A DNA stretch of 64,000 bases from Candidatus Iainarchaeum sp. GTDB lineage: Archaea > Iainarchaeota > Iainarchaeia > Iainarchaeales > VGJJ01. The position numbers were made by a program, and so were the translations under genes. The stretch covers positions 554,558 to 618,557 of the forward strand of contig CP064981.1 in assembly GCA_016699555.1 (NCBI GenBank). Direction: 5' to 3'. This document shows, in pieces, positions 619 to 54,907 of the stretch (position 1 is its first letter; every line of letters begins with the position of its first letter). Under the pieces are notes generated by a model. That model was not told the DNA's origin. It saw nothing but the letters and a program-made list of their open reading frames with translations, and did not search any database.

Positions 619-1005
619 ATGAAATACATCCCCGCTCCCGAATGGACGCAAAAGACCCATGAGTTGGTGGCGCGCCTGGAGATGAAACATGTCATGACCG
701 ATCGCGTCATCTGCTTCAAATCCGAAGGATCGCAATCCCGTCGCACGATTGCACGCATCCATACGATGCCCAAGATCATCCAGATGGGGATCAACCAACC
801 CCCATTCTATGCCATCGAACTCATCTCCGAGCGCTTCGACAAGCAGAGCGAGGAAGAAAAGATCAAGACGCTCATCCATGAGCTCATGCACATCCCCCAT
901 TCATTCAATGGCGGTTTTCGTTCGCATAAACCTTTTGTGACGCATGCCAAAGTCAACGCCATGTATGCGCGCTATCAGTCCCAGGCCCAGTTGTTGTTGC
1001 CCTAG
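619..1005 (+). CDS. hypothetical protein with HExxH motif (putative metal-dependent hydrolase)
   Basis: 128-aa ORF containing LIHELMHIPHSF (HExxH..H). Preferred over the overlapping minus-strand ORF 532-900, which has no recognisable features. Confidence 0.4.
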   Translation: MKYIPAPEWTQKTHELVARLEMKHVMTDRVICFKSEGSQSRRTIARIHTMPKIIQMGINQPPFYAIELISERFDKQSEEEKIKTLIHELMHIPHSFNGGFRSHKPFVTHAKVNAMYARYQSQAQLLLP

Positions 1006-1064: not shown

Positions 1065-1086
1065 CCCTTTGGGAGGTCTTACTCAT

Positions 1087-3795
1087 ATGGAACCGCAAAA
1101 GCAACAGGACATCACACGTGCTTGGAAGCAGCACCAGGTCTTCGAACCAAAAGAGATCGCGGAAAAAGACAAATACTACGTCACGCAGCCCTATCCCTAT
1201 CCCACTGGGCCGCTGCACGTGGGGCATGGAAGGACGTACACCACTACTGATGTGCTCACGCGCTTCGCACGCATCCAAGGAAAGAACGTACTCTGGCCGA
1301 TGGCCTTCCATGTAACGGGGACGCCCGTTCTTGCGATTGCCGACCAGGTCAAGCGCAAAGATGCGGACGCCATGCAGATGTATCGTGGTTACATCGGCAT
1401 CTATGAAAAAAATCCCGAAAAAGTAGAGCAGATCCTCCACTCGTTCGAGGACCCCAAAAAAATTGTGGCATTCTTCGGGAGCGTCATCGAAAAGGATTTC
1501 GATGCGATGGGTTACTCCATCGATTGGAGAAAACAATTCACGACCATGGATCCCTATTACCAGCAATTCGTCCAGTGGCAATTCCACAAATTCAAGGAAA
1601 AAGGGGCATTGGTAAAAGGAAAATATCCCATCCTCTATTCGGCCGTGGATGGAAATGCTGTGGGAGAAGACGACATCAAGGATGGGGACACTGACAAAGT
1701 CGCCATCACGGAATTCCAACTCATCAAATTTCCGCTCGCAAACGATCCCCACACATTCATCGTCGTCGCGACGCTCCGACCCGACACGCTTTTCGGCATC
1801 ACCAACATCTGGGTCAACCCCTCCTTGGAATACGTCAAAGCCGAAGTCAATGGAGAAAAATGGATCATCGCCAAAAACGCCATCGAAAAACTCAAGCTGC
1901 AACAAAAGACAATCGGCGATATCGCGGCTGTTCCGGCACATGAGTTGGCGCATAAAGACGCATTGCACCCGCTCGATGCGCATATGCACATTCCCATTCT
2001 CCCCACTACTTTCGTCAATGCCGAGAAAGGAACAGGCATTGTATGTTCCGTTCCGGGCCACGCCCCATTCGATTTCATGGCACTCGAAGAAGCCAAGAAA
2101 CTCGGCGATGCGACGGCGCAACGCATCCATCCCAAATACATCATTGCCCACCCCAATGGATTCGAGATGCGCAAATTCTTGGACACTTTCAAGGTCCAGA
2201 GCATGAACGACCGCACCCAATTGCAGCAGGCAACGGAAGCGATCTACAAGATCGAATTCTATGAGTGCCGCACCAATGGCGAAAATGGGCCTCTCTCCAA
2301 TATGTCCGTGCGCGGGGCCAAGGACAAATCGGTCGAGCTGTTGAAGGCCGTCAATCGGTGGGATCGCATCTACGAGCCATCGCGCAAGGCATTGACGCGC
2401 GCAGGGAACCCCGTTGTAGTGGCCATCCTTTCCGACCAATGGTTCTTGGACTACACCTCAAAGGAATGGAAAGAGAAAGCCCATCGCTGTCTCAATCGCA
2501 TGCGCATCTTCCCCGAAAAATACGCCAAGACGCTGCATGACTCCATCGATTGGCTGGAACAGCGCCCGTGCATCCGCAAGCGCGGACTCGGAACCCCTTT
2601 CCCTTTTCTGGGAGGGTGGATGATCGAGCCGTTGTCCGACTCCACGCTCTACATGCTCTTCTACCTCTGCATCGAGACCCTGCGCGAGAATGGAATGAAG
2701 CCTGAGGATTTGGATGAGGCATTCTTCGACGCCGCCATTTTGGGAAAAGCGCTCCCGCAAGGGGATGCACGCAGCGCTGCCGCGCAAGAGATCCATGGGA
2801 AGCTGCAGTACTGGTATCCCAATGACATCCGCCATACCGCGCCCGCACACATCCAGAACCACTCCTCTTTCTGGATCCTCGCGCACACGCTGTTATTGCC
2901 CGAAGAATGGTGGCCACGCGCGGCATCGTTCAATGAGATGATGATCCGGAACGGGCAGAAGATGTCCAAGTCCAAGGGCAACATCATCCCCCTCATCGAC
3001 GCCGTCCAAAAATTCGGCCCGGATTTGATGCGCCTCTACACGATCGCGTCTTCCTCGCTCGAACGAACGGCCGACTGGAAGGATGAGCAAGTCCCGCAAG
3101 TCGAAAACAAACTCAATGAGCTGGAGAAAGTCCTCCGTCAAGGATTGGATTTCATCCGCAAGGGCGGAGCGGACTTCATGATCCAACTGGATGCAGCCAC
3201 GAACACGGCGGTGAGCATGAAGAATACCTCTGCGACTCCGCAACAGTTCTGGCTCAAAGAAAAGATCATGCAGCGCTTGGGAGAAAGCTATGAGGCGTAT
3301 GCGCAGATGGACTACAAGATGGCCGCGCAAAAGGCATTCTTCGAACCACTGAATGACATCAAGCAATTCAAGAAAGTCTTTGCGGAAGACGAGAGCTTTG
3401 CCGTTTCGCTCGTCTTGAAGCGCTGGCTGATCATGATTACGCCCATCGCTCCCTTCCTCGCGGAACAGTTGTGGAAAGAAGCCGGTTTTCCCGGATTCGC
3501 TTCTGCACAACACTTGGAGCAGCCCGAAGGCAAGCCCGCGAAAGAAGTCCAAGAGCGCGTGGATGCGGTCGAGAAGATCTTAGGAGACGTCGAGCGCGTG
3601 CGCAAGCTCGCGAAAGGCAATCCCAAGACGTTGTACATCTATTCCATTGATGCGCAGGAAACGGAATGGATCGAAGCGGCAAAGGCACAAATAGAAAAGT
3701 ATGCCCTGCTGCAGGTCAAGATCAACGACGCCCACGACCCACTCGGGAAAAAAGCCAAAGCGCAGAAAGGAAAAGCTGCGCTTTACTTGGAGTGA
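1087..3795 (+). CDS. leuS: leucyl-tRNA synthetase, archaeal/eukaryal type
   Basis: 902 aa from MEPQKQQDI. HIGH region YPYPTGPLHVGHGRTYTTTDV, KMSKS region NGQKMSKSKGN. Long collinear blocks recalled from archaeal LeuRS (WVNPSLEYVKAEV; SDQWFLDYTSKEWKEK...IDWLEQRPCIRKRGLGTPFP; IEPLSDSTLYM). Confidence 0.95.
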   Translation: MEPQKQQDITRAWKQHQVFEPKEIAEKDKYYVTQPYPYPTGPLHVGHGRTYTTTDVLTRFARIQGKNVLWPMAFHVTGTPVLAIADQVKRKDADAMQMYRGYIGIYEKNPEKVEQILHSFEDPKKIVAFFGSVIEKDFDAMGYSIDWRKQFTTMDPYYQQFVQWQFHKFKEKGALVKGKYPILYSAVDGNAVGEDDIKDGDTDKVAITEFQLIKFPLANDPHTFIVVATLRPDTLFGITNIWVNPSLEYVKAEVNGEKWIIAKNAIEKLKLQQKTIGDIAAVPAHELAHKDALHPLDAHMHIPILPTTFVNAEKGTGIVCSVPGHAPFDFMALEEAKKLGDATAQRIHPKYIIAHPNGFEMRKFLDTFKVQSMNDRTQLQQATEAIYKIEFYECRTNGENGPLSNMSVRGAKDKSVELLKAVNRWDRIYEPSRKALTRAGNPVVVAILSDQWFLDYTSKEWKEKAHRCLNRMRIFPEKYAKTLHDSIDWLEQRPCIRKRGLGTPFPFLGGWMIEPLSDSTLYMLFYLCIETLRENGMKPEDLDEAFFDAAILGKALPQGDARSAAAQEIHGKLQYWYPNDIRHTAPAHIQNHSSFWILAHTLLLPEEWWPRAASFNEMMIRNGQKMSKSKGNIIPLIDAVQKFGPDLMRLYTIASSSLERTADWKDEQVPQVENKLNELEKVLRQGLDFIRKGGADFMIQLDAATNTAVSMKNTSATPQQFWLKEKIMQRLGESYEAYAQMDYKMAAQKAFFEPLNDIKQFKKVFAEDESFAVSLVLKRWLIMITPIAPFLAEQLWKEAGFPGFASAQHLEQPEGKPAKEVQERVDAVEKILGDVERVRKLAKGNPKTLYIYSIDAQETEWIEAAKAQIEKYALLQVKINDAHDPLGKKAKAQKGKAALYLE

Positions 3796-3852
3796 CGATA
3801 GCTATATTTACCCGAAGTTTGTGCTATCGAGAAACTTGCCTGATGGGTTACT

Positions 3853-5199
3853 ATGGTTTCCACTTTTAAGGGATTAGGAAAATACCCGTTTGGGAGATCC
3901 CTGCGGTTTGTGATTGGCCGTACCGGGCATTCGAGGGCCCGTCCCAAAAAATTATCTCCCGCTAATGGCCTGAAGCAGGTATCCGAGGAGTTACAGCGAC
4001 GAATTGATTTGGCCGAAAGAGATGGTAAGAATAAGCGTTTCGTGAAGAGTTGGAAACGCATGCACGTGCTCATCGAAGCCATACGTCAGCTCCCACTTCC
4101 AATTCAGCAACGATTTCCATTCGATGCCACTCATGTATTGGCCGCTAGCGGTTTGACTCATGGGATCGGGAAAAAAGAATTGAGCGAACAGCTCAGCGCG
4201 CTGCGTTACCTGCAACGACATGCTTCACGCCACGGAATCAAGATAGTCAAGGATGTCAATCTAGGCCTGATTACCACCGTGAATCGCGATACCGTGCAAC
4301 GCTTGGATACGTGGATGAGCCGTCAAGCAAAACCCATTCGTGTTGCCGATGCAGTGAATGAATTGCAACTCCCGCGTCACATGGTCTATCACGCGATTAC
4401 CGTGCTTCATCAAATGGGATTGGTCAAACGTACTCGTTTGCGCTCGTCGGGGAAAAATAATGCTATTTATCAATTCACGACGGCGCATCCGGAAAAGAAA
4501 GAAACAGCTGCACAGAAAAAGGAAAAGATCCCACGTGCAAAAAGAGGATCGAAGATGCAATTATGGAATCGGAGACTCAGCGAGACAGAAAGAAATGAGA
4601 TCGACATGTGGCTGAAACGCAATATTGGTCTCGTTCACCACGCCGCCAATAGATTCTATTACAAACATCGGAACTTCTTGGGTCGTATCGGGTATGGTCA
4701 AGAGGATTTACTGGGAGTAGCGTTATTTGCGGTCCAAAAAGCATTCCTTACGTTCGAACCCGAGCGTGGCATCAAGTTTTCTACTTTCGCGTTCAAATGC
4801 ATGCAAAATGAATTAGTTCATCTCGTGCGACGTTACGACTCCGAAAAACGCGGAAAAGATGCCGTTTCTTTGAGTGAAGTGCGTGAATACAAGGGAGCCC
4901 GTACTGGCACGCTGCTCGATCGCATCGTAATCGAACAGGCGAAACCATTACTCTCTGCGGATGCCCGTGCTGCACTGCGCGAGGCCGTTTCTGCTTCGAA
5001 TCTCACGGATATCCAACGCCTGGTAATTGAACGTCGATTCGGATTAGATGGCAAAGCGGCATCGGCGTTACGGGAGATCGGGAAGGAAAGAGGTGTTTCG
5101 GGCGAGCGCATCCGTCAAATAGAATCCGCGGCTCTAACCCGATTGGCCGAGAATCCCAAAATCCGGAAAATTTTTATGGATTATCTAGGGAATGAGTGA
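3853..5199 (+). CDS. sigma-70 family protein (regions 2 and 4) with about 250-aa N-terminal wHTH-like extension; compositionally atypical
   Basis: C-terminal half matches sigma-70 region 2 (NIGLVHHAANRFYY...GQEDLLGVALFAVQKAFLTFEPERGIKFSTFAFKCMQNELV) and region 4.2 HTH (LTDIQRLVIERRFGLDGKAASALREIGKERGVSGERIRQIESAALTRLAE). Arg codons are CGT/CGA/AGA-rich and TTA Leu is frequent, against CGC/CTC dominance in leuS and smc. A tatattta element lies at 3803-3810. Confidence 0.7.
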   Translation: MVSTFKGLGKYPFGRSLRFVIGRTGHSRARPKKLSPANGLKQVSEELQRRIDLAERDGKNKRFVKSWKRMHVLIEAIRQLPLPIQQRFPFDATHVLAASGLTHGIGKKELSEQLSALRYLQRHASRHGIKIVKDVNLGLITTVNRDTVQRLDTWMSRQAKPIRVADAVNELQLPRHMVYHAITVLHQMGLVKRTRLRSSGKNNAIYQFTTAHPEKKETAAQKKEKIPRAKRGSKMQLWNRRLSETERNEIDMWLKRNIGLVHHAANRFYYKHRNFLGRIGYGQEDLLGVALFAVQKAFLTFEPERGIKFSTFAFKCMQNELVHLVRRYDSEKRGKDAVSLSEVREYKGARTGTLLDRIVIEQAKPLLSADARAALREAVSASNLTDIQRLVIERRFGLDGKAASALREIGKERGVSGERIRQIESAALTRLAENPKIRKIFMDYLGNE

Positions 5200-5211
5200 C
5201 ATGTTGGGGCG

Positions 5212-6929
5212 CTACATCTCCTGCAGCGTCTCGATGTTCAGGCAGAACATGCCTTCTTCCAGCACGCAATTGACCGCTTTCACGAGTGCCAAGCGGGCGG
5301 ATTCCAATTCCTTATTCTCTTGGATGACGGCCGTCTCGTGGTAATAGGAATTGAACGTGTTCGCGAGATCCAAGATGTACTGCACCAGGATGTGCGGGGA
5401 ATAATGCGCCGTGGAATCAGCGAACACATCCGCTTTTTTTGCGAGCAGATACAGCAATGCCTTTTCTTTTTCCGTTGCTAGTATGTGCGCGAGCGCTTCA
5501 TTGGGCTTCGCATCCGACTTTCGCATGAGCGAGTAGGTGCGCGCCAGTGTGTAGAGCACATACGGCCCGGTCTGTCCGTCGAAGGAAAGGCTTTCCTGGG
5601 GATTGTACTCGATGGGCTTCTTCGCATCCTGGCGCGTCATGAAGAACTTGATGGCGGAAAGCGCGACCACGCGAGCGCGATTCCCTATGACGGACTCGCT
5701 CATCTCGGGATTGCGCTTCAGCAATTCGTCGCGGGCCAAGCGATAGACCTCATGGAATGCTTCGTCGGCATTGAACGCCTCCCCTGCGCGCGAGGACATC
5801 TTTCCCCGCCGGGTTTTTCGATCAGTCCATAAGAGAGGTGATAGCACTGTCGCGCTTGCGGGACTCCCAACAATTGCAGGATCGCGAACAACTGCTGGAA
5901 GTGCAGGTCCTGCTCGCTGCCGACGACATAGATGATCTTGCCCAATTCGGGATAGTCCCTGAAACGCTGCTGCGCGAGATAGATGTCCTGCGTCACATAC
6001 ATCGTCGTGCCGTCCGAGCGCAACACCACCTTATCGGGGAGGCCGAACGACTTCAGCGGGGCGGCGATGGCTCCATTCTCGAGCTTGATGAATTTCCCGC
6101 TTTCATAGGCGGCGAGCGCGATATTTTTTCCCTTGTCATAGATCATGGACTCATAGTAGTTCTTGTCGAACTGGATCCCGAAAAGGCGATAGCTCTGCTG
6201 CACGCCCTCGAACCACCAGGCGTTCATCTTCTCCCATAGTTCGCGTACAGTGGGATCGTCCTGTTCCCAGCGCTGGAGCATGAATTGGGCTTCTTCTTCG
6301 AGCTTGGGATCGGCATCGGCTTTCTGCTTGAACAAGACATAGTATTTCCCCACGAAATAATCTCCCTTCATGTCGATGCTTTGGGGCGTCTCTCCTTTGC
6401 CGAAGCGCTGATAGGCCAGCATGCTCTTGCAGATGTGCACGCCGCGATCGTTAATGATCTGCGCGCGCAACACGCGATGGCCTTGGTGCTCGAGCAAGCG
6501 CGCGATGCTCTCCCCTAAGGCCATATTACGCACGTGTCCGAGGTGCAGGGGCTTATTGGTGTTCGGGGAAACAAATTCTACCATGACCTGCTGCGCATCC
6601 TTTCCGGGGATTTTGGGCGCAGCAACGGCAGAAGCAAGAATATCCTTGTTCATCTGCTTCTCGTCGAGAAAAATATTGATGTAAGGCCCCACACTCTCGA
6701 AGCGGAAATTGTCCGTGGAGAGATTCAGCTCATTCGCCAGCTTTTCCGCATACACGGGGGGCTTTTCCCCTTTGGGAGTAAAGCGAAAAACGGGCAGGGT
6801 GAGGTGTCCGAATTTGGGATCGGTAGGCTGTGAAATGAAACCCACAATGGTCGTCTTTCCGGGGCTATTGCCCAGCAGCAGTCCGTCGACGAGTTCGGCG
6901 ACTCTTTCCTTTGCTTGGGCCAGGGACAT
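5212..6929 (-). CDS. argS: arginyl-tRNA synthetase, reading frame broken by a 1-nt deletion in an A5 (T5 on plus) run near 5814-5818
   Basis: ORF 5718-6929 has the ArgRS catalytic core (FVSPNTNKPLHLGHVRNMALGESIARLLEHQGHRV). ORF 5212-5847, in another frame, has GKMSSRAGE (KMSKS-like) and the DALR anticodon-binding C-terminus ending ...LNIETLQEM. Reading ctgatcgaaaaa(a)cccggcgg with one extra A yields a continuous LIEKTRRGKMSS. Confidence 0.85.
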
Positions 6930-7883: not shown

Positions 7884-9455
7884 ATGCCGCGTAAAGTGAT
7901 TAAACAACTGCTTCCAGGTCATCCTCATTATTGGGAAGTCGTCATGCTTCCTCCCACGACGCGTCAATTGCGTAAATTCCAGAAGCATGGGCATTTTCTG
8001 ATTGACGTTCCTAAAGGGAAGAAACCCACTCCAGAAGAAGTCGAACACGCGCGCACGCATGGGATCAAAGTCCCCCCGGTCACGGAAGGGGTGCGTGACT
8101 ACGCCCTTGAAGAGTTTTTCAAAAAAAAACTGACCCCCGAGCAAAAATCGGCGGTGTTGGGGGCAATCGAGCGCGAGATTAATCGCGCATACGCCGAAGA
8201 TGGGTCCAAATACCGTACGCGAGTGCCTCATGTAACCCCGATCGACAGCGTGCAATCCATTTTCGCGAATGCGCACATCAGTTCCATTTTCAAGAACACG
8301 ATCGAAGATCCTCGTGCCCGCGAAATCGCCGTAAAAATAGAGAGCGCTATCACGCGCGTAGGGGTCGCGTTCGTGATGCACGAACATCTGCGGGCGAAAG
8401 GCATCCATACGACGCTCCCAGAACTCGTGACCGCAGCCGTACGATTCATGAAAGAGCGTGGTCCGAAAGGAAGCGTCACCGTCGTCTCTCCGGAGTATGT
8501 TGCAGGAGTGGAACGCCAAATCCTCCAGGAGAACCTCGAGAAACGCAAGAAGGAATACGCTGCTCGCATCGCGCAGAACCGACAGGCGCGCGAAAAACTC
8601 CACCAAGTCAGGGAAATGATGGCCAATCTACTCATCCCGCGCGCGGAACGCAAGGAAATATTCCAATTCGCGCGTCAGCAATTCGCTCAAAAGGGGGGAA
8701 TTGACGCCGTCACTATCAACCGTCTTATCTACAAGCGTGCACGCCTGCATGCGATGGGTGCCATCCAAGCGGCAGGACTGAATGGCGATCGCCTCATTGG
8801 AGAAATAGGAGTCGATATGACTCCCGATGGAATGCGCCGTTTGCAGGCATTCGGAGAGATGCTGCGGGCCACTCCTCCTGAAGCCAGGCGTGAACGCATC
8901 GTCGCAATGGCGGAACAGGCGAGGCCCACTCCGAACGCAGTGACTTCTATCCCAATTCATCCGAAAGGCCCCCGGCGCGAAAAGGAAAGACGAAAACCAG
9001 TGCGTCCAGTAAAACCGCCCGTCAAAGCCACGCCTAAAAAACCAGTTGAAAAATTACCAGAAGGATTCAAGGGACTTGTCAACCATGTCGAAAGGGCGCC
9101 CCATGTGACGCATGAGATGTATGTTCGCCTGCGCGATTTGCTTTCTAATGAATCCGCCAAAAAACCAAAACAACAAAATAAGGACCTCATGCGCCGTGCG
9201 ATGCGCATCACGGTTCTTGCATATATCACGACCGAATTCAATATGTCGGGACGTCTGCATGTGGACCACCTCAAGGACAAGTACCGCAATACCCTACACC
9301 CCTTGGTGGACGAATGCGTAGCCAGTCTCGTTCACAACAATTTTTTGGAATATGAACATCATAAAGGACATTTCCGCAATGTCGCCTTGACGGAGTATGC
9401 TAAAGCACAAGGCGTCCTCGAAAAATATAATACCCGCAAAAACCAGCAAAAATGA
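7884..9455 (+). CDS. hypothetical basic protein (523 aa), Lys/Arg/Pro-rich central linker
   Basis: Long uninterrupted ORF with no recognised domain; PxKP-rich stretch KPVRPVKPPVKATPKKPVEK. Confidence 0.5.
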   Translation: MPRKVIKQLLPGHPHYWEVVMLPPTTRQLRKFQKHGHFLIDVPKGKKPTPEEVEHARTHGIKVPPVTEGVRDYALEEFFKKKLTPEQKSAVLGAIEREINRAYAEDGSKYRTRVPHVTPIDSVQSIFANAHISSIFKNTIEDPRAREIAVKIESAITRVGVAFVMHEHLRAKGIHTTLPELVTAAVRFMKERGPKGSVTVVSPEYVAGVERQILQENLEKRKKEYAARIAQNRQAREKLHQVREMMANLLIPRAERKEIFQFARQQFAQKGGIDAVTINRLIYKRARLHAMGAIQAAGLNGDRLIGEIGVDMTPDGMRRLQAFGEMLRATPPEARRERIVAMAEQARPTPNAVTSIPIHPKGPRREKERRKPVRPVKPPVKATPKKPVEKLPEGFKGLVNHVERAPHVTHEMYVRLRDLLSNESAKKPKQQNKDLMRRAMRITVLAYITTEFNMSGRLHVDHLKDKYRNTLHPLVDECVASLVHNNFLEYEHHKGHFRNVALTEYAKAQGVLEKYNTRKNQQK

Positions 9456-26565: not shown

Positions 26566-26602
26566 TAATACTTAAATGCCCGCAAATGGTTGGAATAGGC
26601 AT

Positions 26603-29600
26603 ATGGCTGAAGAAAATCCTTCCCCCAATGAAGGACGCGTGCGTAAAATCAAGGGGCATAAGGATCCCTTTGAAGCCGCACTCGAAGACACTTCTACACA
26701 ATCAGGTGCTCCTCTGATACTCGACCTCGGTGAAACTCCTCCCGAAGAAGATGAAACCGCACTCCAAGGACGCATGGCCTCCCGTGCACGCCGAAGGCAG
26801 GCAGCAGAAGATGACGATGGCGACGAGGATGGCGATGACGACGATGGAGAAGGCGACGACGAAGAGGAACCTCCTATTCCGGATGATGAAGAACCCGACG
26901 ACGATGAGGAAGGAAATCCCGAGGATGGGCTCGATGACATCCAGGATGGAGATAATCCCGACGAAGTCACTCCCAGCGTGGACACACGCACACGCTCCCG
27001 CAAGACAAAAGCAGCGCCCGCGGCAGCGGAAGGAGAAGAAGCGGTTGAGCCGGAATCGGAATGGAATGAAGAGCACGACTTGCAGGACTTACTGCACGAA
27101 GAAGGGGTAACCGAAGAAGGAATCGACTCCATCGACGAGCTCCATCCGGGAATGGAAGAAGACGCTGCGGCGAATGAGAACCCAAGCGATGAACCACTGC
27201 CCGAAGACGCCGCACCGCGCAAGAGACAACTCCTGCACGCTAAAACGCTCAGCCCCTTGCACGAGAAACTCAAAGAACAGCTCCTGCTCAAAGCCCGCGC
27301 GCACGAGATGCCTGTCACATCCCCTTCGGTGAAATTGGAATTGCTCGAGCTGCCAGAGAAAAAACAGGCATTCATCGGGAGAAAGAAAAGCATCCTCCAA
27401 AAATCAGGACTCGATGGCGCACTCTATATCGGAAAAGTCCAAGACGATGAAAAGTACGGCGACTATTCGCTCTACCTCGACTCGCTCAACCCCCACGTCG
27501 TATTCATCTGCGGATCCCGCGGAAGCGGAAAGTCGTACTTGTTAGGCGTTATCGCCGAGGAATTGGCGCTGCACAACAAAGACGTCGGCGTGGTCGTCGT
27601 GGACCCCGTGGGGGTATTCTGGTCCATGAAATTCCCCAACAAAGAAGAACGCGAAGTCAAGACGCTCAACGATTTCAATCTCATGCCGCAGGGACTGGAA
27701 AACCTCCGCGTGTTCATTCCCGAAGGCAGCAAGAACGAGACGCCCAAGAACACATATGACGGGCTATTCTCCATTCCCCCTGCCATGCTCACCAGCGAAG
27801 ACTGGGCGCTCACCTTCGGAATGGAACGCTTTTCTCCAACGGGATTGCTATTGGAAAAAGCCCTCAAGAAAGTCGAAACCGGATTCAAAACAATCGAAGG
27901 AGAAAAAGTTCCCGGAAAGAAAAACAAATTCAGCCTGGACGATTTGATCCTGTGCCTGGAAAAGGACTTCGAACTCAACTCCCGCGAACGCGGATACAAA
28001 CCCGATTCCGTGCGCGCGCTCGTCTCGCGCTTTGAAGCCGCCAAGGCATGGGGAATATTTTCCGAGAAAGGGACCCCGCTCAGCGAGATCTCGCGCGAGG
28101 GACAGCTCACGGTCATCGACACCAGCTTCTTGGACGATTCCGTCACCGCACTCGTCATCGGAATTTTGGCAAGAAGATTGCTGGCCGCGCGCAAAGTGCA
28201 AACGCGGAGGGAAGCCGCACAGAAATTCAAATCCGATGAGGCGGATGACCTGCTCGAGACCGAGATACCTCCCACATGGCTGTTCATCGATGAAGCGCAC
28301 ACACTCATCCCCAGCGGGAACGTCAAGACCCCCGCGACGAATGCGATCGTGGAATACGTGAAACAAGGACGCAGGCCCGGGTGCTCGCTCGTGTTCGCGA
28401 CCCAGCAACCCTCTGCCATCGACACGCGCGTGCTGTCGCAGTTGGATGTGATCGTGGCCCACAAACTCATTTTCGACGATGACATCAAGGCCATCATGAA
28501 GCGTACTCCCACCATTATCCCCATGAAATACAAGCACCCCAATTTCCTGAAGACGCTTCCGGTAGGAATCGGTTTGACAGGCGACCGACGCGAAGAGACC
28601 TCGCGCGCATTCGTGCTGAAAGTGCGCCCGCGCATGTCGCAGCACGAAGGAAGAGATGCCGAAACGGGCGAGCACAAGCAACAGCTCTCCGAGAAAGAGG
28701 TCATGAAGCTCGCCATCGAGGTCATCTTCTCCAAGCTCGAGAAAGAAGGGAAATTGGAAAAAGAAGAAGTGGAACAGCTCGTGCAAACCCTCAATTCCAA
28801 GTACCGGAGCAAGATCATGCTATCGGACGTGCTGGATGGCCTCGAGGAAAAGGGCGCGCGCATCGATGCCAAGACCATGGAAGTGATCTCTCCCACGTAC
28901 ATCGAGGTCAAGATACCCGTTCCCGCGGAAAAAGAAGCGACCGCCAAGACTCCCCAGCAGAAGGCACAAGAACTCCAGAAACTCATCGAAGAACCGCAAG
29001 CCGAAGAAGAAGAGACCAGTTTGCGCGCGTTGCCCGTGTCTTTCTCCAACGCTCAGATTATCCAGAAACTCGAAAAGGCAGCGAAGAAGAGCATGTTCGG
29101 ATTCGGCGGGACGCAGGAGAAGCTCCAGGAAGTATCGCTGCACTACAAGCCCATCTATCATGTGGAATACCGCCAATTCACCGGCAAGACCACTTTTATC
29201 CAACGCTCGTGCGATGTGGATGCCGAGAAAGGGGAGTTCGTCCACTACCTCAACAACCAATTCGTCTTATCCAATGGCTTGAGCGAGGTTGGTTCGCTGA
29301 GCAAGCAAGAAGGGCAACTCCTGCATACGATTGCGCGTAAATCCACTACCATCCCACAGCTCGCTTCTCAACTGGACATGAGCGAAAAAGACGTCAAGCG
29401 CGCCTTGACGAAACTCTACGACCAAAAGCTCATCGATGTCACGGGAAGCAAGGAAAAACCAGTGGTGCAGCTCTCCAAGTCCCTCGACTTGCCGTTCTCC
29501 GGAAGCGAAAAAGCGCTATCCTCGCTCGCACCGCTCAAGCTCGTGCACGTGCCCAAGATCAAACCCATTCGCGCACGTATCAGCGCGGATGAATTGAATG

Positions 29601-29752
29601 CGTTGCTTTCCACGCTGTGGCCCAACACCAACATCATGCACGTCTCCGAAATCTATCAACCCGTGATCGAGGCCACGCTCATGAATGCAAAGACAAATGA
29701 ATTCCGCAAGGTCCTATTGGACGGATTCACGGGAAACATTCTTGAAGAGTAG
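26603..29752 (+). CDS. HerA/FtsK-superfamily (DUF87-type) P-loop ATPase with acidic disordered N-terminus and C-terminal wHTH
   Basis: Walker A FICGSRGSGKSYLLG, Walker B WLFIDEAHTLIP, VFATQQP motif. N-terminal 250 aa is D/E-rich (DEDGDDDDGEGDDEEEPPIPDDEEPDDDEE). C-terminal TrmB-like HTH (LLHTIARKSTTIPQLASQLDMSEKDVKRALTKL). TATA-like tacttaaat at 26568-26576 favours ATG 26603 over 26576. Confidence 0.8.
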   Translation: MAEENPSPNEGRVRKIKGHKDPFEAALEDTSTQSGAPLILDLGETPPEEDETALQGRMASRARRRQAAEDDDGDEDGDDDDGEGDDEEEPPIPDDEEPDDDEEGNPEDGLDDIQDGDNPDEVTPSVDTRTRSRKTKAAPAAAEGEEAVEPESEWNEEHDLQDLLHEEGVTEEGIDSIDELHPGMEEDAAANENPSDEPLPEDAAPRKRQLLHAKTLSPLHEKLKEQLLLKARAHEMPVTSPSVKLELLELPEKKQAFIGRKKSILQKSGLDGALYIGKVQDDEKYGDYSLYLDSLNPHVVFICGSRGSGKSYLLGVIAEELALHNKDVGVVVVDPVGVFWSMKFPNKEEREVKTLNDFNLMPQGLENLRVFIPEGSKNETPKNTYDGLFSIPPAMLTSEDWALTFGMERFSPTGLLLEKALKKVETGFKTIEGEKVPGKKNKFSLDDLILCLEKDFELNSRERGYKPDSVRALVSRFEAAKAWGIFSEKGTPLSEISREGQLTVIDTSFLDDSVTALVIGILARRLLAARKVQTRREAAQKFKSDEADDLLETEIPPTWLFIDEAHTLIPSGNVKTPATNAIVEYVKQGRRPGCSLVFATQQPSAIDTRVLSQLDVIVAHKLIFDDDIKAIMKRTPTIIPMKYKHPNFLKTLPVGIGLTGDRREETSRAFVLKVRPRMSQHEGRDAETGEHKQQLSEKEVMKLAIEVIFSKLEKEGKLEKEEVEQLVQTLNSKYRSKIMLSDVLDGLEEKGARIDAKTMEVISPTYIEVKIPVPAEKEATAKTPQQKAQELQKLIEEPQAEEEETSLRALPVSFSNAQIIQKLEKAAKKSMFGFGGTQEKLQEVSLHYKPIYHVEYRQFTGKTTFIQRSCDVDAEKGEFVHYLNNQFVLSNGLSEVGSLSKQEGQLLHTIARKSTTIPQLASQLDMSEKDVKRALTKLYDQKLIDVTGSKEKPVVQLSKSLDLPFSGSEKALSSLAPLKLVHVPKIKPIRARISADELNALLSTLWPNTNIMHVSEIYQPVIEATLMNAKTNEFRKVLLDGFTGNILEE

Positions 29753-40450: not shown

Positions 40451-41259
40451 CTACTCCTCGGTTGGAGGTAGGTGGCGTTCACTTCTTTTACGCGAAAGCA
40501 CTCTTTTCGGGACTGTTCGAATGAATGTTCTTTGGCTAAATGGATTGTAAAAAACAACACGACTTACTTTTGCCGCATCAAAGTTTTCCAAAATTTTATA
40601 GCCCATTCCAGGAATATAGCTGTGGTCGGTATTCGACAAATGAAAAATTTCATTCGCATGCCACTCTCCGGCTTCTAATACCACTTTGTGTTTTCTAATC
40701 ACGCGTTGAGCTTCGCGGTCAAGGGTTTCTTTTGCCTTTTCGATGTGCGCGATGGCATGCAGATTGAAGATGCGCCCGAGTTCGATATTCGAGATGCGAC
40801 GAAACGGATAGCTTACCGGCTTTCTTTTGAGAGGGTTCACTACCCGGCGTCGCGTCTGTTTCTTTTGCGATTTTGCGAGAAAGGGGATTTTTGTGGCTCT
40901 TCGTCGAATCATAGCATCACTATCGATTCCAGGAATATATGCGTTCCTGCTGGGCATTTTTATAGTTCGAATAATTCTATGTCGCTATGAAACCGCGCCC
41001 GCATCACATGCCTAGTCAACGCGGGGTAGGGCAAATCGTTTCCAGGGATATCCATCTCGTTTCCATCGGCGAACCCGGCGGAAAACAAAAAGGGCAACAT
41101 ATCTTGCGCCCAGGCCATCGCGCGGAAGCCGAAACGCATCCGCTGGTAATTGGTCATCCTGGGCAAATCGCAGAAATCTCCGCGCGCAGCGTACTGGCGC
41201 GGCATGGAGTAGAAGTTCATTTTGATCAGTCTCAAATCCCTGAAATAAGAAGCGGTCAC
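40451..41259 (-). CDS. hypothetical protein, possibly one gene split across two abutting ORFs (40960-41259 and 40451-40957) by a frameshift
   Basis: The two minus-strand ORFs meet at 40957-40960 in different frames. No recognised domain. Confidence 0.3.
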
Positions 41260-43454: not shown

Positions 43455-44033
43455 ATGCAAAGTGTTTTGGTGATGTTCATGCGGGTTTCACAAATAGCTT
43501 TTCTATTCACAGCGGCCGTTTTGTTTTCTTCAATGGCGTTTGCATACAGTCATAGTAGTATGGAATATTATTTAGCGGAGGGATTCAATGAAAAGGGGGA
43601 ACTGCAGCCTTACTATCAATCCAATATTGCGGTTGCGAACGCACAATTGCAACAAGCGCCCGAATTCATTCGAGGAATTTTATTGAATGAGCGCATTCAA
43701 GGAAAAATCCTCATGGAAAGCGGAAAAACAGAACTAATTGGGATTGAGTTATCCAAAGAAGGGATTCAGCACGTCTTTAGAGGGGAAATGGATAACCCTA
43801 CTCTCCAAATTACGGGAAATGAAGCGGCCGTAGTTGAAATACTCAACGCGGATGCGCCCGTGGATGCCGCCGTAAAGGCCATCAATGCCGGGAGCATCAC
43901 CTATGGGGGTGTTTCTGCAATGGATGAAGTGAAAGCAGAATCCAACTTCGCCATAACAACGAAGCTCTTCTTGGTGAATATTGCTTCTTTCATGAGTGGG
44001 TTCTTAGAGAAAGTATATAGTACGCTTTCCTAA
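43455..44033 (+). CDS. hypothetical secreted protein
   Basis: N-terminal signal-like helix IAFLFTAAVLFSSMAFA. Confidence 0.4.
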   Translation: MQSVLVMFMRVSQIAFLFTAAVLFSSMAFAYSHSSMEYYLAEGFNEKGELQPYYQSNIAVANAQLQQAPEFIRGILLNERIQGKILMESGKTELIGIELSKEGIQHVFRGEMDNPTLQITGNEAAVVEILNADAPVDAAVKAINAGSITYGGVSAMDEVKAESNFAITTKLFLVNIASFMSGFLEKVYSTLS

Positions 44034-44923
44034 TGCGTGGTGGTGGCGAAAGCTACCCATCCCTGCATGCGGAAAGGAGCAATCACTTGCGATGCCACTT
44101 TCTCATCCTCACAAACCGCCACTACCGTGGGCCCTGCGCCCGCGAGCATGGCCTTGCGGATGCCTGGCATGTAATTCAAGCGCGCAATTAACTCAAATAC
44201 GGGCTCATATTCTTTCAACGTGAGATTCTCGAATACATTTCCCATTTTCTCAACAACTTTTTTGGGATCATTCGATTCTAATGCATGCTGCATGGCTTTG
44301 ATCGAATAGTGCTCCGATACATTTGCTACATTAAAGTTTCCGTAAATCCATTTTGTTTTGGCTTCGGGCACTTTTACGGGCGGAACGATGAATGCAAGAT
44401 GCAGCGTGGGGCATTTTTCTTTCAATGGAGAAATGATTTCCCCTCTTCCACGAGCGATGCACGTCCCTCCATAAATGAAAAAGGGCACGTCGCTGCCAAT
44501 GTGTCCCGCCATTTCGGCGAGTTTTTCATTGGAGAGATGGAGTTCCCACAATTGATTCAATCCCTTCAACACGGTTGCCGCATTGCTGCTCCCGCCGCCC
44601 AATCCTCCAGCGGAAGGGATGTGCTTCTCGATGAATATGCGCACACCCTCTAAGGGCTTGCTTTGTTTTTGGGCTTCGTGTTGCATCAGTTCAACCGCTT
44701 TCCAGCAGGTGTTTGTGTGATCGCGTGGCACAGTCGGATCGGTGCATTCGATTTGGATTTGGTTCGTGTGGGGGAGGGTTTCGATGGTGATGTTATCATG
44801 GATGTTCAATTCCTGCATCACGAATTCGACTTCATGAAACCCATCATCGCGCTTGCGCAAGAGATCCAAGACTAGATTGAGCTTTGCGGGGGAATGGAGG
44901 GTCAGTGTGGGCATGGAAATCAT
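44030..44923 (-). CDS. ispE: 4-diphosphocytidyl-2-C-methyl-D-erythritol kinase (MEP pathway)
   Basis: HSPAKLNLVLDLLRKRDDGFHEVEF (IspE N-terminus) and GHMP-kinase loop IPSAGGLGGGSSNAA. Confidence 0.8.
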   Translation of the reverse strand: MISMPTLTLHSPAKLNLVLDLLRKRDDGFHEVEFVMQELNIHDNITIETLPHTNQIQIECTDPTVPRDHTNTCWKAVELMQHEAQKQSKPLEGVRIFIEKHIPSAGGLGGGSSNAATVLKGLNQLWELHLSNEKLAEMAGHIGSDVPFFIYGGTCIARGRGEIISPLKEKCPTLHLAFIVPPVKVPEAKTKWIYGNFNVANVSEHYSIKAMQHALESNDPKKVVEKMGNVFENLTLKEYEPVFELIARLNYMPGIRKAMLAGAGPTVVAVCEDEKVASQVIAPFRMQGWVAFATTTH

Positions 44924-45313
44924 TCAAGTCGATCGTGTATTCCAATATTCATTCAAATAGGTGATTTTCTTACCCTTCATCTTGAGAACCATTATTCCAT
45001 ACATCAAATCATGGCGCCATTTTTTCTCGCTTCGTTTGTAATGATCGTTTTCACACTTCCATTCGGCAAAACCTGTTTTTCCATTTTTTGAAACCCAGTA
45101 GTTTCCAAGACTAAATTTAATGTTTTTTGTATTCATCACAACGGTGCGTCGCCAGAACTTTTTCATAGCATTATGGCCGTTAATTGGTTTTCGCAATGGA
45201 CTTTCCTGATAAGACCCGCGAGGAACAAAGCATTGTATCAATATTTCAGGATCTTGTTGTTCCCATGCCTTGCCATATAGTTGCATGACTTGCCTGATTT
45301 GCTTTCGATTCAT
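44924..45313 (-). CDS. NTF2/SnoaL-like fold protein (hypothetical)
   Basis: 129 aa; YGKAWEQQDPEILIQCF...GHNAMKKFW pattern typical of SnoaL-like domains. Confidence 0.4.
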   Translation of the reverse strand: MNRKQIRQVMQLYGKAWEQQDPEILIQCFVPRGSYQESPLRKPINGHNAMKKFWRRTVVMNTKNIKFSLGNYWVSKNGKTGFAEWKCENDHYKRSEKKWRHDLMYGIMVLKMKGKKITYLNEYWNTRST

Positions 45314-45349
45314 AATAGGTGTGGCGCGTCAGAAAATAAATATATACGC

Positions 45350-46363
45350 CTAATGCACCACATAGGCTGGGCGCACAATCTCGCTTTCGGCTTTGTTGTG
45401 GTCGCGGTCGTAGCGGGCGATCCATTGCACGACGTCTTCGATATCCTCATCCGGAGTAGAAGCGCCGGCGCCGATTCCCACATACTTGGAATTGGCGAAC
45501 CATTCGGGTTTCAATTCGGCTTGGGATTCAACCCAATGCGTGGTAGTGTATTTGGCGCACAGCTCGGCTTGGCGTTTCGTATTTCCGCTATTCTTTCCGC
45601 CGATGACAATCATCGTGTCCACTTGCATGGCCAATCCCACGGCGCCGGGCTGCATCTCGTGCATGGCGTTGCAGATGGTATTGAACACGCGCACTTCTCT
45701 GGCTTTGCCCATCAACGCATCCACGATGGCTTGGACATGATCGTTGCTCTGCGTGGTCTGCGAAACGACGCCGAGTTTGGGGACGGTGGGGTAATGCAAC
45801 TTTTCCACGACGCCTTCATCGGTCTTCTCTTTCATCAGTTCGTCGTTGGTGTAATATTGGGTTTTCTTCTGGAACAAGCCTTTTGCCTCGTCCAATGTCT
45901 CCACGACAATCGCATTCGGGGCATAGGACTTAATTCCTTCCACTTCGGGGTGGCCGTGTTCGCCGATGATGACGACTTGATAGCGTTCATCGAACAACTG
46001 CTTGGCTTGCTTGTGGACCATCGTGACAAAGGGGCAGGTCGTGTCGACGATCTTGAAGTTCTTTTCCTTGGCCTTCTGCATGGCCTGGACCGTCACGCCG
46101 TGCGCGCGCATCAAAACAGTCGATCCTTCGGGGATTTCTTCCATGGAATTCAAGTGAGTGAATTTGGAGATCTTGCTGGCGGCATAGGGGTTGTCTTCCA
46201 CGAGCTTTCCGCCGTGTTCGATGATCTTCTCTACGACGCGCTGGTTGTGGACAGGCATTCCATAGAGGTAAGCGGATCCCTTGTCCAAGGTCTCATGGGA
46301 AAGCTTCACGCTGCGCTTAACTCCGAAGCAGAATCCAGCGGCACGGGCGATTTCGATCTTCAT
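45350..46363 (-). CDS. ispH: 4-hydroxy-3-methylbut-2-enyl diphosphate reductase (MEP pathway)
   Basis: MKIEIARAAGFCFGVKRSV... (LytB N-terminal Cys motif) and two more conserved Cys regions (TTCPFV; FNTICNA). Start at MKIE preferred over the upstream in-frame extension. Confidence 0.85.
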   Translation of the reverse strand: MKIEIARAAGFCFGVKRSVKLSHETLDKGSAYLYGMPVHNQRVVEKIIEHGGKLVEDNPYAASKISKFTHLNSMEEIPEGSTVLMRAHGVTVQAMQKAKEKNFKIVDTTCPFVTMVHKQAKQLFDERYQVVIIGEHGHPEVEGIKSYAPNAIVVETLDEAKGLFQKKTQYYTNDELMKEKTDEGVVEKLHYPTVPKLGVVSQTTQSNDHVQAIVDALMGKAREVRVFNTICNAMHEMQPGAVGLAMQVDTMIVIGGKNSGNTKRQAELCAKYTTTHWVESQAELKPEWFANSKYVGIGAGASTPDEDIEDVVQWIARYDRDHNKAESEIVRPAYVVH

Positions 46364-46530
46364 TGAAAAACAACTCCTTGTCGTTGCGTAATAACTCAAA
46401 ATGGCGAGCACGCAGATAAAAACCCAACCCAAAAGTTTGACGGAAAGCGAATTAAAAAACGACAAAGGACGAATTGGGGGTGGATTCTGCCCGGAAACGG
46501 AATTAAAAGCAGCAATTCGGTCGGATTGGT

Positions 46531-47781
46531 ATGCCTGTGCAGAAAATGGACGTATTTGATGTCATCGTTTCGGGTGCCGGCCCCGCTGGCGCAACCACGG
46601 CGTTATTCCTCGCACGCGCGGGAAAGAAAGTCCTTCTCTTGGATAAGGAAAAATTCCCGCGCGACAAGATCTGCGCGGACAACAAGACATGGAAGTGCTT
46701 GGACATCGTGAAAGAACTAGGGCTATGGAAGCAATTCCAAAAGCTCCCCAAAGCGGAAATCTATGGGGTGTTGGTTGCCTCACCCAATGGAAGCGAGATG
46801 TACACCCCACTTCATGAAAAAGACATCGCCGAGCGGGGACACTGGTATAATGTCAAGCGCATCCATTTCGATAACTTGCTCGCGCAAGCCGCCAAGAAAG
46901 AAAAAAATATCACATTCAAGGAAAAATGCGCGGTTGTCAAACCCATTTATGCGGTGCATTCCAAAACACACATCAGTGGGGTGACCTATCACGATGCAAA
47001 AGGGAAAACGCACGACGCATGGGCACGCGTCGTCGTGGGAGCGGATGGATCGCAGTCTCCTATCGCAAAAGCGGTGGGTCATTCCCCTGTGGTGAAAGGG
47101 CGCTATGCCACGAACACGCGCGCCTATTTCGAGAACGTAAAAGGCCCCATGGATCGGTGCGAACTCTATTATCTCAAGGGCATTTGTCCGGGTTATTTTT
47201 GGATTTTCCCGGTGGACAAGAAGACTTGCAACGTGGGGATCGGTATGCGCCCGGAGGATTTCGAGAGGCAAAAGAAGTCCTTGGAACAAATCTTGCGGGA
47301 AACGATTGCGTTGCCGCAATTCAAGGGGCGTTTCAAGAAAGCCAAGCAAGTTACTGCATTCAAGGAATGGGGACTAAGCGTGTTGGGGAAACGCCGTCCC
47401 TGCGCGGGAAATGGATGGGTGCTCGTGGGAGATGCCGGGACGTTCGCGATGACATTCTCCGGAGAAGGAGTTGGTCCCTCGATGCGCACGGGAAAGATCG
47501 CCGCGCAAGGGATCGTGCGCGCGCTGAACGAAAATGATGTGTCCGCGCGCAATCTGAAAAAACACTATGAGGATGCGCTTTGGAAAATTTTGAATCCGGA
47601 AGTCAAGGGATTCCGCTGGCTCGAATTCTTGCTACTGAATGAGCGCCTGTTCGATTTCGTCATCGCAAAGTCAGCGAAAAACAAAGAGCTCATCGAGATC
47701 TCTTCGCGGATGCAGCATGATTACACGCTCTCCAAGAAGCTCGTGCATCCCAAGACCGCGCTGAAGATGCTACTGAGTTAA
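46531..47781 (+). CDS. geranylgeranyl reductase family FAD-dependent oxidoreductase (archaeal DGGGP reductase-like)
   Basis: FAD motif DVIVSGAGPAGATTALFLARAG...LLLDKE; GD(A)AG block VLVGDAGTF. Confidence 0.8.
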   Translation: MPVQKMDVFDVIVSGAGPAGATTALFLARAGKKVLLLDKEKFPRDKICADNKTWKCLDIVKELGLWKQFQKLPKAEIYGVLVASPNGSEMYTPLHEKDIAERGHWYNVKRIHFDNLLAQAAKKEKNITFKEKCAVVKPIYAVHSKTHISGVTYHDAKGKTHDAWARVVVGADGSQSPIAKAVGHSPVVKGRYATNTRAYFENVKGPMDRCELYYLKGICPGYFWIFPVDKKTCNVGIGMRPEDFERQKKSLEQILRETIALPQFKGRFKKAKQVTAFKEWGLSVLGKRRPCAGNGWVLVGDAGTFAMTFSGEGVGPSMRTGKIAAQGIVRALNENDVSARNLKKHYEDALWKILNPEVKGFRWLEFLLLNERLFDFVIAKSAKNKELIEISSRMQHDYTLSKKLVHPKTALKMLLS

Positions 47782-47811
47782 GGCTAAATAGTTGAAAATA
47801 ATTCTCATTGC

Positions 47812-48930: not shown

Positions 48931-48987
48931 GTCAATTACCGGTGGGTTGTGGAAAGGCATTTAACTTCATTTCAATTGGTGGTGCAT

Positions 48988-50157: not shown

Positions 50158-50161
50158 GAGC

Positions 50162-50485
50162 ATGGGAAAGAATAGGCGTGGCTTCAAGCTGGAAAGGAAA
50201 ACGTACGGGGGAATCCCTCCTGCGCCGCATGTCCATCCGAGTCAGAAACCGCCGTGGTATCGTGAATTGGAGGGCCGCAGGCACCTCATCGAGCTGGCGT
50301 TTGCCGCCGAGCGTCGCTGGGACCAAAAGACGATCCAGGCCAAGACGAACCGCATGTTGGCCGAGCTCCTGCGTCAATCTGCCAAGGGCCAAGTCAATGT
50401 CAAAACGCTCACCTACTTGCAGGATCTCATCCAATTCGGACAGGATATGGTGGATCACGCCGAGCGCCAAAAGGGGAAGCGTTAA
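50162..50485 (+). CDS. small hypothetical protein between dxr and ispD
   Basis: 107-aa ORF starting 5 nt after the dxr stop; no recognised domain. Confidence 0.35.
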   Translation: MGKNRRGFKLERKTYGGIPPAPHVHPSQKPPWYRELEGRRHLIELAFAAERRWDQKTIQAKTNRMLAELLRQSAKGQVNVKTLTYLQDLIQFGQDMVDHAERQKGKR

Positions 50486-50513
50486 TTAAATCGTTGGGAA
50501 TAACTGGATAATC

Positions 50514-54832: not shown

Positions 54833-54907
54833 CGCTTCCTGTCTCTCTCAAAATTTTACTTAGAAATAAAATCAGTTCCCTCAACGCGTGTACGCGGTGA
54901 TTCCCTC

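Follow-up and report, generated by a model that had tools for sequence, protein, structure and literature searches.

Transcription initiation is textbook-distinct between archaea and bacteria, and a gene for a bacterial-type sigma-70 factor on an archaeal chromosome therefore raises the question of what such a protein could be doing there. We examined a 64,000-nucleotide stretch of the Candidatus Iainarchaeum contig CP064981.1 (positions 554,558 to 618,557; hereafter the window, with coordinates counted from its first letter) in which a sigma-like gene lies between the aminoacyl-tRNA synthetase genes leuS and argS. The GenBank contig is 1,048,949 bp long, and the product of the open reading frame (ORF) at 3853-5199 is identical to QQR92123.1, which GenBank annotates as a sigma factor of Ca. 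Iainarchaeum. A first-pass annotation made from the sequence alone had left four possibilities: a decaying bacterial or phage acquisition, part of a virus or plasmid, a domestic repurposed DNA-binding protein, or a chimeric assembly. We find the gene to be native to the chromosome of an Iainarchaeota (DPANN) archaeon. The third possibility fits best, and we favor, with a probability of roughly 0.55, a domesticated sigma-derived DNA-binding transcription regulator that would work with the archaeal machinery.

The C-terminal half of the protein belongs to the sigma-70 superfamily by both sequence and predicted fold. In a Pfam scan, Sigma70_r2 (PF04542) matched residues 256-329 at 31.6 bits (curated cut-off 24) and Sigma70_r4 (PF04545) matched residues 383-431 at 37.4 bits (cut-off 24.1), while the sigma-70 superfamily model of NCBIfam, TIGR02937, covered residues 250-433 at 50.8 bits against a cut-off of 42.9. 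The hidden Markov model search thus bore out regions 2 and 4.2 as first read, with both of the peptides quoted at that time falling inside the matches. Sequence matches extended to 70 distinct sequences of solved sigma-factor chains and were strongest in region 4.2 (RpoS, E 3e-11). An AlphaFold model computed from a 72-sequence input had a mean predicted local distance difference test score (pLDDT) of 83.3, with sigma domains 2 and 4 mostly above 90. Searching with this model, Foldseek returned sigma chains of holoenzyme structures at E-values of 2e-7 to 6e-5 and probabilities of 0.99-1.0 (50 matches listed).

Within the superfamily, the module could be placed further. Neither sigma domain 3 (PF04539) nor region 1.2 (PF00140) gave a match at E<=1 in the Pfam scan, which sets the protein apart from group 1-3 sigma factors. 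Because these matches are missing and only 36 residues separate sigma2 from sigma4, we regard the C-terminal module as a two-domain sigma. The RpoD C-terminal model TIGR02393 aligned to residues 358-444 at 56 bits. Among named NCBIfam equivalogs SigK scored best, with 63 bits where 252 are required, and the cut-offs of SigK, SigE, RpoD, RpoS, RpoH, FliA and MzaA were all far from reached. The TFIIB family (cyclin repeats and zinc ribbon) produced no Pfam match at E<=1 in this ORF, which places it outside TFB/TFIIB. Sequence matches to TrmB, MarR and ArsR winged-helix domains all remained below the Pfam thresholds. Structural positions of sigma factors are conserved across the family (D285, A297, S339, L340, G397, L398, G414 and L431 in alignment A1), with D285 and A297 nearly invariant.

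The sigma module is preceded by a long N-terminal extension that includes a winged helix, as the first-pass annotation had proposed; we place the latter at residues 145-210. An exhaustive HMMER search of 1.84 billion representatives identified 8083 sigma relatives, of which the sole match better than 1e-30 was the query protein itself. In the same search, stretches 1-211, 4-212 and 4-198 of the N-terminal half matched the N-termini of three other proteins (P0135, P0137 and P0165). P0135 and P0137, like P0122 and P0123, are about 625-640 residues long and each end in a C-terminal sigma2-sigma4 module; P0165 has 440 residues and ends at a contig edge. These long forms carry an additional middle section of ~200 residues, including a second winged helix, relative to which the window protein is a short form. 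With homology over residues 1-211 and a C-terminal sigma2-sigma4 module, the window ORF is a member of this fusion family. Sixteen columns are invariant in alignments A1 and A2. The most conserved stretch of the N-terminus is a basic peptide with the family consensus M-V/A-S-..-G-.-.-P-F-.-R-.-L-R-F, in which M1, G9, R15, L17, R18 and F19 are invariant in both alignments. A profile based on A2 scored 278 bits on the window ORF, by construction, as the window sequence is part of that profile.

The family is rare, with about a dozen members seen. A Ca. Forterrea metagenome-assembled genome (Iainarchaeota), the sole genome retrieved by a locus scan with the narrow alignment A6, encodes one of the long forms, and another (L008) sits between genes for a DUF63 membrane protein and a TP_methylase. 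A word-index protein search with the N-terminal alignment A2 gave nothing below 0.001; since the exhaustive search did recover the family, this null result probably reflects the limited sensitivity of the tool. The family profile detected no paralogues in the window or the related loci, except for a second gene in one related genome (L006, see below). Judged from these alignments, the N-terminal module is an Iainarchaeota-specific partner of sigma modules. A separate metagenomic protein retrieved by the exhaustive search and not encoded in the window, P0125 (589 residues), contains ~7 tandem units resembling sigma region 4 (...SLTDREKDILFRRYGLNGYEKQTQ...), an unusual repeat architecture.

The sequence upstream of the gene is consistent with transcription by the archaeal machinery. 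A TATA-like box precedes the ATG (Table 1) and is aligned at the same place after the leuS stop codon in two related genomes, L002 and L003. In all other family genes, a TATA-like box lies about 20-37 nt upstream of the ATG, and for window genes generally TATA-like motifs peak at -25 to -29. We found no bacterial -35/-10 promoter ahead of the gene. Positions 3600-5400 contain a single consensus-like match, which falls inside the ORF (4153-4180), and such matches were no more frequent than in shuffled sequence. Bacterial-type promoter-like or terminator-like sites likewise showed no excess over shuffles.

A sigma gene in these surroundings could in principle be an artifact in which bacterial and archaeal reads were joined. 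The compositional dip at the gene (see below) would fit such a chimera, as would a sign of imperfect consensus quality nearby: a 1-nt deletion between 5806 and 5805 (run GGCGG-GGAAAG), relative to the intact genes of L002 and L003, breaks argS into two overlapping ORFs. This indel is probably an assembly consensus error; alternatively, an essential gene carries a true frameshift. Its site lies just beyond the independent contig described next. That contig, a 2177-bp Logan contig from an independent short-read assembly (run SRR11674035), is identical to window positions 3524-5700 and covers both the leuS-sigma and the sigma-argS junction. In addition, the same gene order recurs in other samples. 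Because an identical contig crosses both junctions base for base, chimerism is excluded for practical purposes. The surroundings are archaeal, as first described: LeuS passes the archaeal equivalog model (Table 1), a profile scan of the window identified an archaeal RecJ and an SMC gene, pilin genes with class III signal peptides lie downstream together with a T2SSE ATPase gene, and the record itself is Ca. Iainarchaeum. The position of the gene between leuS and argS of an archaeal chromosome was also upheld.

We then compared the slot across related genomes. Three genomes from other samples (L002, L003 and L004) share the order leuS, sigma-like gene, argS (convergent), EamA and a ~530-residue ORF, with a metallopeptidase gene upstream of leuS; synteny extends to the pilin in L002 and L003, and further to T2SSE in L003. 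In a fourth genome, L006, in which LeuS is 77% identical, two sigma-like genes lie between leuS and argS. These genes, of 402 and 212 codons, occupy positions 4034-6294 of that locus with a small antisense ORF between them, a 41-residue fragment of which resembles the catalytic part of argS; this hints at a past rearrangement or duplication. A sigma-like slot gene is therefore present in four related genomes. In a more distant genome from Hainich groundwater (L011, LeuS 54% identical), leuS and argS are likewise neighbors, but the slot (3667-4649) has no sigma-like gene and holds two unrelated small ORFs of 136 (+) and 109 (-) residues without a Pfam match. The slot thus takes different cargo over longer timescales.

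The sigma-like gene diverges far more than its neighbors. In pairwise comparisons of the window, L002 and L003, protein identities were 89-90% for leuS, 79-90% for argS, 87-91% for EamA, 79-82% for the pilin and 90% for T2SSF, with 91% for T2SSE (full-length comparison with L003), against 31-38% for the slot gene in all three pairs. DNA similarity ends at the leuS stop codon and restarts at the argS stop codon. By Nei-Gojobori estimates, non-synonymous divergence (dN) reached 0.72-0.89 in the slot gene, compared with 0.06-0.07 in leuS and 0.13-0.16 in the pilin, a rate for the slot gene about 10-15 times that of leuS. Synonymous divergence (dS) was about 1.4-2 for leuS and saturated (undefined) for the slot gene in two of the three pairs; we therefore quote dN alone, as this saturation leaves no reliable dN/dS. 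With leuS third-position identity at only 0.54-0.58 and a dN of 0.72-0.89 against 0.06-0.07 for leuS, the slot gene changes at a near-neutral rate. The ORF is nevertheless open in every genome and the sigma structural positions are kept, which argues against a pseudogene. The decay suspected at first was not supported, as ORF and sigma motifs are intact although synonymous sites are near saturation.

Slot genes also differ in architecture and in their predicted contact with DNA. The window gene encodes 448 residues with the full N-terminal module, versus 258 and 288 residues without that module in other slot genes; by eye, P0124 has apparently kept part of the middle section of the long forms. 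The recognition helix reads ERIRQIE in the window and L003, and ENVRLIN in L002, which implies that sister genomes differ in DNA specificity. Compared with one another, the sigma modules from the window, L003 and L002 are each other's best matches (124, 100 and 86 bits), with the long forms clustering apart. This makes divergence in place more likely than repeated replacement by distant paralogues, and we take the gene to be vertically inherited, not recently acquired.

Codon usage had been taken to point to a recent foreign origin. The counts themselves were correct: arginine is encoded by CGT 19 times, CGA 7 times and AGA 7 times in the sigma gene, whereas CGC accounts for 28 of the 37 arginine codons of leuS, and the leucine codon TTA occurs 10 times compared with twice in leuS. 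G+C content at third codon positions (GC3) is 0.49, compared with 0.68-0.71 in the flanking genes, and lies 1.35 standard deviations below the window mean. The conclusion drawn from this usage was not supported, since seven other window ORFs, mostly without a Pfam match, also have GC3 below 0.5. The slot gene similarly falls below its flanks in L002 (0.37 versus about 0.50) and L003 (0.31 versus about 0.57), with no such drop in L006. Low GC3 thus characterizes either this class of fast-evolving genes or a donor pool of lower GC and does not mark a recent bacterial origin; very weak or diversifying constraint on the gene accounts better for its codon bias. The seven other ORFs lie at 40451-40957, 43455-44033, 44924-45313, 47812-48930, 51612-52295, 52442-52960 and 59635-60306 (GC3 0.40-0.48, window mean 0.62). 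Five have no Pfam match, 44924-45313 has a sub-threshold SnoaL-like match and 47812-48930 encodes a methyltransferase; several are interleaved with isoprenoid pathway genes (see below), and they share the compositional class of the sigma-like gene.

A gene taken up recently from a bacterium or phage and now decaying would account for the low GC3, the atypical arginine and leucine codons, and the lack of a close homologue, the next match in our first search being 30% identical. We consider it most improbable and in large part refuted: syntenic sigma-like genes occur in four related genomes; three slot genes are mutual best hits; the promoters are of archaeal TATA type; the sigma module is fused to an Iainarchaeota-specific N-terminal module; ORFs and conserved sigma positions are intact despite near-saturated dS; and other native orphan ORFs have low GC3 as well. 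We infer instead a transfer that is ancient compared with the radiation of these Iainarchaeota.

In protein and phage-genome searches, identity between the window protein and bacterial or phage sigmas did not exceed about 35%. Its best curated matches were the sporulation-type SigK and SigE over the whole module and RpoD and RpoS over region 4. The best profile match was the broad phage family phrog_351 (112 bits), and individual phage genes were 24-33% identical in a tblastn search against 50,697 phage genomes. The nearest sigma-only relatives came from Firmicutes-phage-like surroundings (Spo0A_C, GP3_package), from a Firmicutes-like chromosome and, in one case, from an unresolved context. 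Our best guess from these matches is that a short sigma of Firmicutes or phage type was the donor. A specific phage donor was considered but is not supported: the phrog_351 score is high, but the phage genes are only 24-33% identical and pattern-limited IMG/VR scans were empty. Membership in a defense system was also rejected, as the candidates amounted to a weak, sigma4-only MzaA match and a weak Csa3 winged-helix match.

The variable content of the slot suggests another explanation, in which the slot is a hotspot for accessory or mobile DNA. The sigma-like gene would then be cargo, perhaps from a DPANN virus or another element, that is swapped by recombination and does not diverge in place. 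Consistent with this, sigma-like genes of 258, 288 or 448 residues occupy the slot, with two in L006 and unrelated ORFs in L011, slot-gene GC3 is below that of the flanks in three genomes, the top profile match is a phage family, and divergent rpoS-like genes have been reported in viruses assigned to DPANN (PMC12647753). We nevertheless think exchange unlikely. No viral hallmark family appeared among roughly 46 window ORFs scanned with Pfam or NCBIfam, and no integrase was found in the window ORFs scanned; flanking direct or inverted repeats were limited to short chance repeats. Pattern-limited scans of IMG/VR returned no family member. Within these scans, the gene lacks the integrase, hallmark genes, attachment (att) repeats and viral-contig relatives of a provirus or integrated element, and the virus or plasmid suggested by the first-pass annotation was not borne out. 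Moreover, the slot is a single 1.4-kb gene, the three close slot genes are mutual best hits, the phage matches are no closer than those to bacterial sigmas, and the divergence is as expected from near-neutral change at this dS.

For the domesticated regulator that we favor, a possible course of events can be outlined. An ancestor of the family would long ago have captured a bacterial or phage sigma resembling the short group-3 or extracytoplasmic function (ECF)-like sigmas of Firmicutes and their phages, which would then have become joined to archaeal winged-helix modules. The gene would be transcribed by the archaeal RNA polymerase from its TATA-box promoter. The protein, most likely a sequence-specific regulator, would read DNA through the helix-turn-helix of sigma4, where the recognition helix (ERIRQ) comes close to that of primary sigmas, together with the winged helix. 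We take four of the five -35-contacting positions of E. coli sigma70 to be kept in sigma4 (E, R, R, Q). The disordered basic peptide conserved at the N-terminus is a candidate docking motif, and sigma2 may contact the clamp coiled-coil of the archaeal polymerase, which is speculative, or serve as a mere scaffold. A bacterial core polymerase would not be required, and the window ORFs scanned (64 kb of a 1.05-Mb genome) included no bacterial-type polymerase gene. Because protein change is near neutral and recognition helices differ between sister genomes, the regulator may have quickly changing targets or partners and may act in an accessory or conflict-related circuit, not in housekeeping. The passage on sigma genes in PMC8204110 states that DPANN genomes with sigma-70 genes also have TBP, TFB and TFE but no anti-sigma factors.

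Several observations weigh against a domesticated regulator of this kind. The beta' coiled-coil contacts of region 2.2, which we take to be Q406, E407 and N409 in E. coli sigma70, are G, V and L here, making contact with a polymerase uncertain. The -35-like hexamer TTGACA is not enriched in intergenic DNA of the window, where 2 of its 22 sites lie, within the range of hexamers of the same composition; with only ~5 kb of non-coding sequence, this comparison is without power. A near-neutral rate could also mean that the protein is only weakly useful. Finally, N-terminal architectures differ among slot genes and the slot of the distant L011 holds unrelated genes, and at this divergence change in situ cannot be fully separated from replacement by homologous alleles.

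A further alternative to domestication is a functional sigma in an archaeal setting, either as an alternative specificity or opening factor on the archaeal clamp or as a protein delivered to reprogram the polymerase of a bacterial partner, and overall we find this doubtful. If it were true, the fast, allele-specific change of the recognition helix would represent an arms race or a rapid rewiring of regulons, and the archaeal-clamp version would be a naturally occurring cross between bacterial and archaeal initiation. In that version, sigma2 would sit on the Rpo1 clamp coiled-coil and help to open promoters, or stand in for TFB or TFE at some of them. This coiled-coil is conserved universally, and the sigma2 motif KFSTFA and the sigma4 helix ERIRQ are retained. 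DPANN archaea also lack TFE-beta according to a review (PMC7289017). Set against these points, core-binding residues of region 2.2 are not conserved (by the E. coli numbering we assume), fast evolution and differing recognition helices are unlike a basal factor, and the similarity to TFE is generic to winged helices. We know of no precedent for a sigma in archaeal initiation, and regard this version as quite unlikely.

A true sigma for a bacterial polymerase, whether an effector acting on a bacterial host or neighbor or the partner of an unseen bacterial-type polymerase within the archaeon, is in our judgment very unlikely. The sigma2-sigma4 architecture is complete and confidently modeled, fast evolution is typical of host-parasite interfaces, and some DPANN archaea may be episymbionts of bacteria (PMC8204110). 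However, we saw no obvious hydrophobic signal peptide at the N-terminus (read by eye), apart from a generic pilus locus in the vicinity nothing links the gene to secretion or delivery, the window ORFs scanned contained no gene for a bacterial polymerase, and the archaeal-type winged helix would have no role.

Table 1. Positions of the sigma-like gene, its parts and other features of the window.
Feature	Position	Strand	Evidence or description
Whole ORF, 448 aa, ATG start	3853..5199	+	Winged helix + sigma-70-family fusion; GenBank QQR92123.1
TATA-like box TATATTTA, 42-49 nt upstream of ATG (-49 to -42)	3804..3811	+	Presumed archaeal promoter; sequence read directly
Conserved basic peptide, aa 1-29 (MVS..G..PF.R.LRF...)	3853..3939	+	Predicted disordered, pLDDT <50
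Helical bundle, aa 36-125	3958..4227	+	No specific structural match
Winged helix-turn-helix, ArsR/MarR/TrmB type, aa 145-210	4285..4482	+	
Lys/Glu-rich disordered linker between halves, aa 213-227	4489..4533	+	pLDDT <50
Sigma domain 2 (regions 2.1-2.4), aa 244-332, motif FEPERGIKFSTFAFKCMQNEL	4582..4848	+	PF04542; pLDDT >90
Linker, beta-hairpin, aa 333-368	4849..4956	+	Strands 343-345 and 351-353 in model; Ser339-Leu340 invariant in alignment A1
Sigma domain 4 (regions 4.1-4.2), aa 369-447, recognition helix SGERIRQIE, primary-sigma-like C-terminal tail	4957..5193	+	PF04545, TIGR02393, PDB RpoS and SigA alignments
leuS, archaeal type, upstream anchor	1069..3795	+	TIGR00395 leuS_arch, 727.8 bits (cut-off 648.5)
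argS, downstream anchor, convergent with sigma-like gene	5212..6929	-	Pfam tRNA-synt_1d and DALR_1
GHMP kinase (ispE-like)	44030-44923	-	
ispH/LytB	45350-46465	-	
Geranylgeranyl reductase, among isoprenoid genes	46531-47781		
dxr	48949-50157		
ispD	50514-51227		
dxs	52964-54832		
ispG	54908-56161		

The wider neighborhood held further genes of note. A gene at 619-1005 (+) encodes a 128-residue protein with a PhageMetallopep domain and an HExxH motif and lies directly upstream of leuS in L002, L003, L006 and L011. No other domain nearby is named after phages, but this is a stable chromosomal gene and no sign of a prophage, being kept even at 54% LeuS identity. Two genes from the sigma-like gene, a syntenic ORF at 7884-9455 (+) encodes a Lys/Arg-rich orphan of 523 residues. 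It is 47-50% identical to its L002 and L003 versions (L002 versus L003, 73%) with dN of 0.47-0.50, the second fastest in the neighborhood. It had no above-threshold Pfam match and no match in PHROG, PADLOC or our family profile, and no PDB sequence matched better than E 0.2; it might work together with the sigma-like protein or be just another fast orphan. Farther downstream, positions 44030-56161 contain a near-complete bacterial-type isoprenoid pathway (MEP/DOXP, named for methylerythritol phosphate and 1-deoxy-D-xylulose 5-phosphate; Table 1), a type of cluster reported for Woesearchaeota (PMC8204110). An ORF at 26576-29752 (+) encodes 1058 residues, with an ATPase core that resembles HerA/VirB4 (PADLOC models mad8 and HerA, E about 1e-20) and ~80 C-terminal residues matching CasR and CARF-associated winged-helix models, and may be a defense-related or conjugation-like ATPase.

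The bare observation of a sigma homologue in such an archaeon is already known, because DPANN sigma-70 genes have been published, rpoS-like genes have been reported in viruses and GenBank already annotates this protein as a sigma factor. Our literature search found nothing on sigma factors specific to Iainarchaeota or Diapherotrites. As far as we found, the Iainarchaeota fusion module, the fixed leuS-argS slot, the archaeal promoters and the near-neutral divergence with a retained fold are apparently undescribed. A sigma homologue kept by selection in an archaeon would be a natural experiment on the portability of sigma domains. DPANN sigma genes had earlier been listed but not dissected, and the present family is tractable, having a defined architecture, an archaeal promoter, a fixed slot and a near-neutral rate with a kept fold. 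The fixed slot allows orthologues to be compared, and the role of sigma domains without a bacterial polymerase becomes testable with recombinant proteins. The gene is also flagged as part of a fast-changing, possibly conflict-related circuit in organisms with genomes of about 1 Mb. If the protein is merely a repurposed helix-turn-helix regulator, the case is a neat but modest one of domain recycling after an ancient transfer.

The closest published counterparts are the DPANN sigma-70 genes described in 2021 as fam00359 by Castelle et al. (PMC8204110), who excluded mis-binning and left the function unknown. Like the window gene, these encode bacterial-type sigma-70 homologues beside archaeal genes. 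The study stresses Woesearchaeota without mention of Iainarchaeota, and its passage on sigma factors describes no winged-helix fusion, conserved slot or extreme rate (PMC8204110). Compared with the group-3 sigmas SigK and SigE, the ECF-like sigmas of TIGR02937 and the phage family phrog_351, the window protein shares collinear sigma2 and sigma4 domains, over about 195 residues in the SigK and SigE models. We also take its motifs FSTFA..C..NE and VSL to resemble those of sporulation sigmas. It differs from these short bacterial and phage sigmas in scoring far below the equivalog cut-offs, in identities of at most about 35%, and in being encoded by an archaeal gene with a TATA promoter and a 240-residue N-terminal module of archaeal type. 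RpoD and RpoS are alike in region 4.2 and the C-terminal tail (36-46 bits), including a nearly identical recognition helix ERIRQIE, whereas regions 1.1 and 1.2, the non-conserved region and sigma3 are missing from the window protein. The Trp dyad in region 2.3 of primary sigmas presumably corresponds to Lys-Cys here. The winged helix, in turn, gave sub-threshold Pfam matches to ArsR, MarR, TrmB and Lrs14 regulators and to TFE-alpha; unlike in those archaeal proteins, it follows a conserved basic peptide and a helical bundle that has no match, and is fused to a sigma module.

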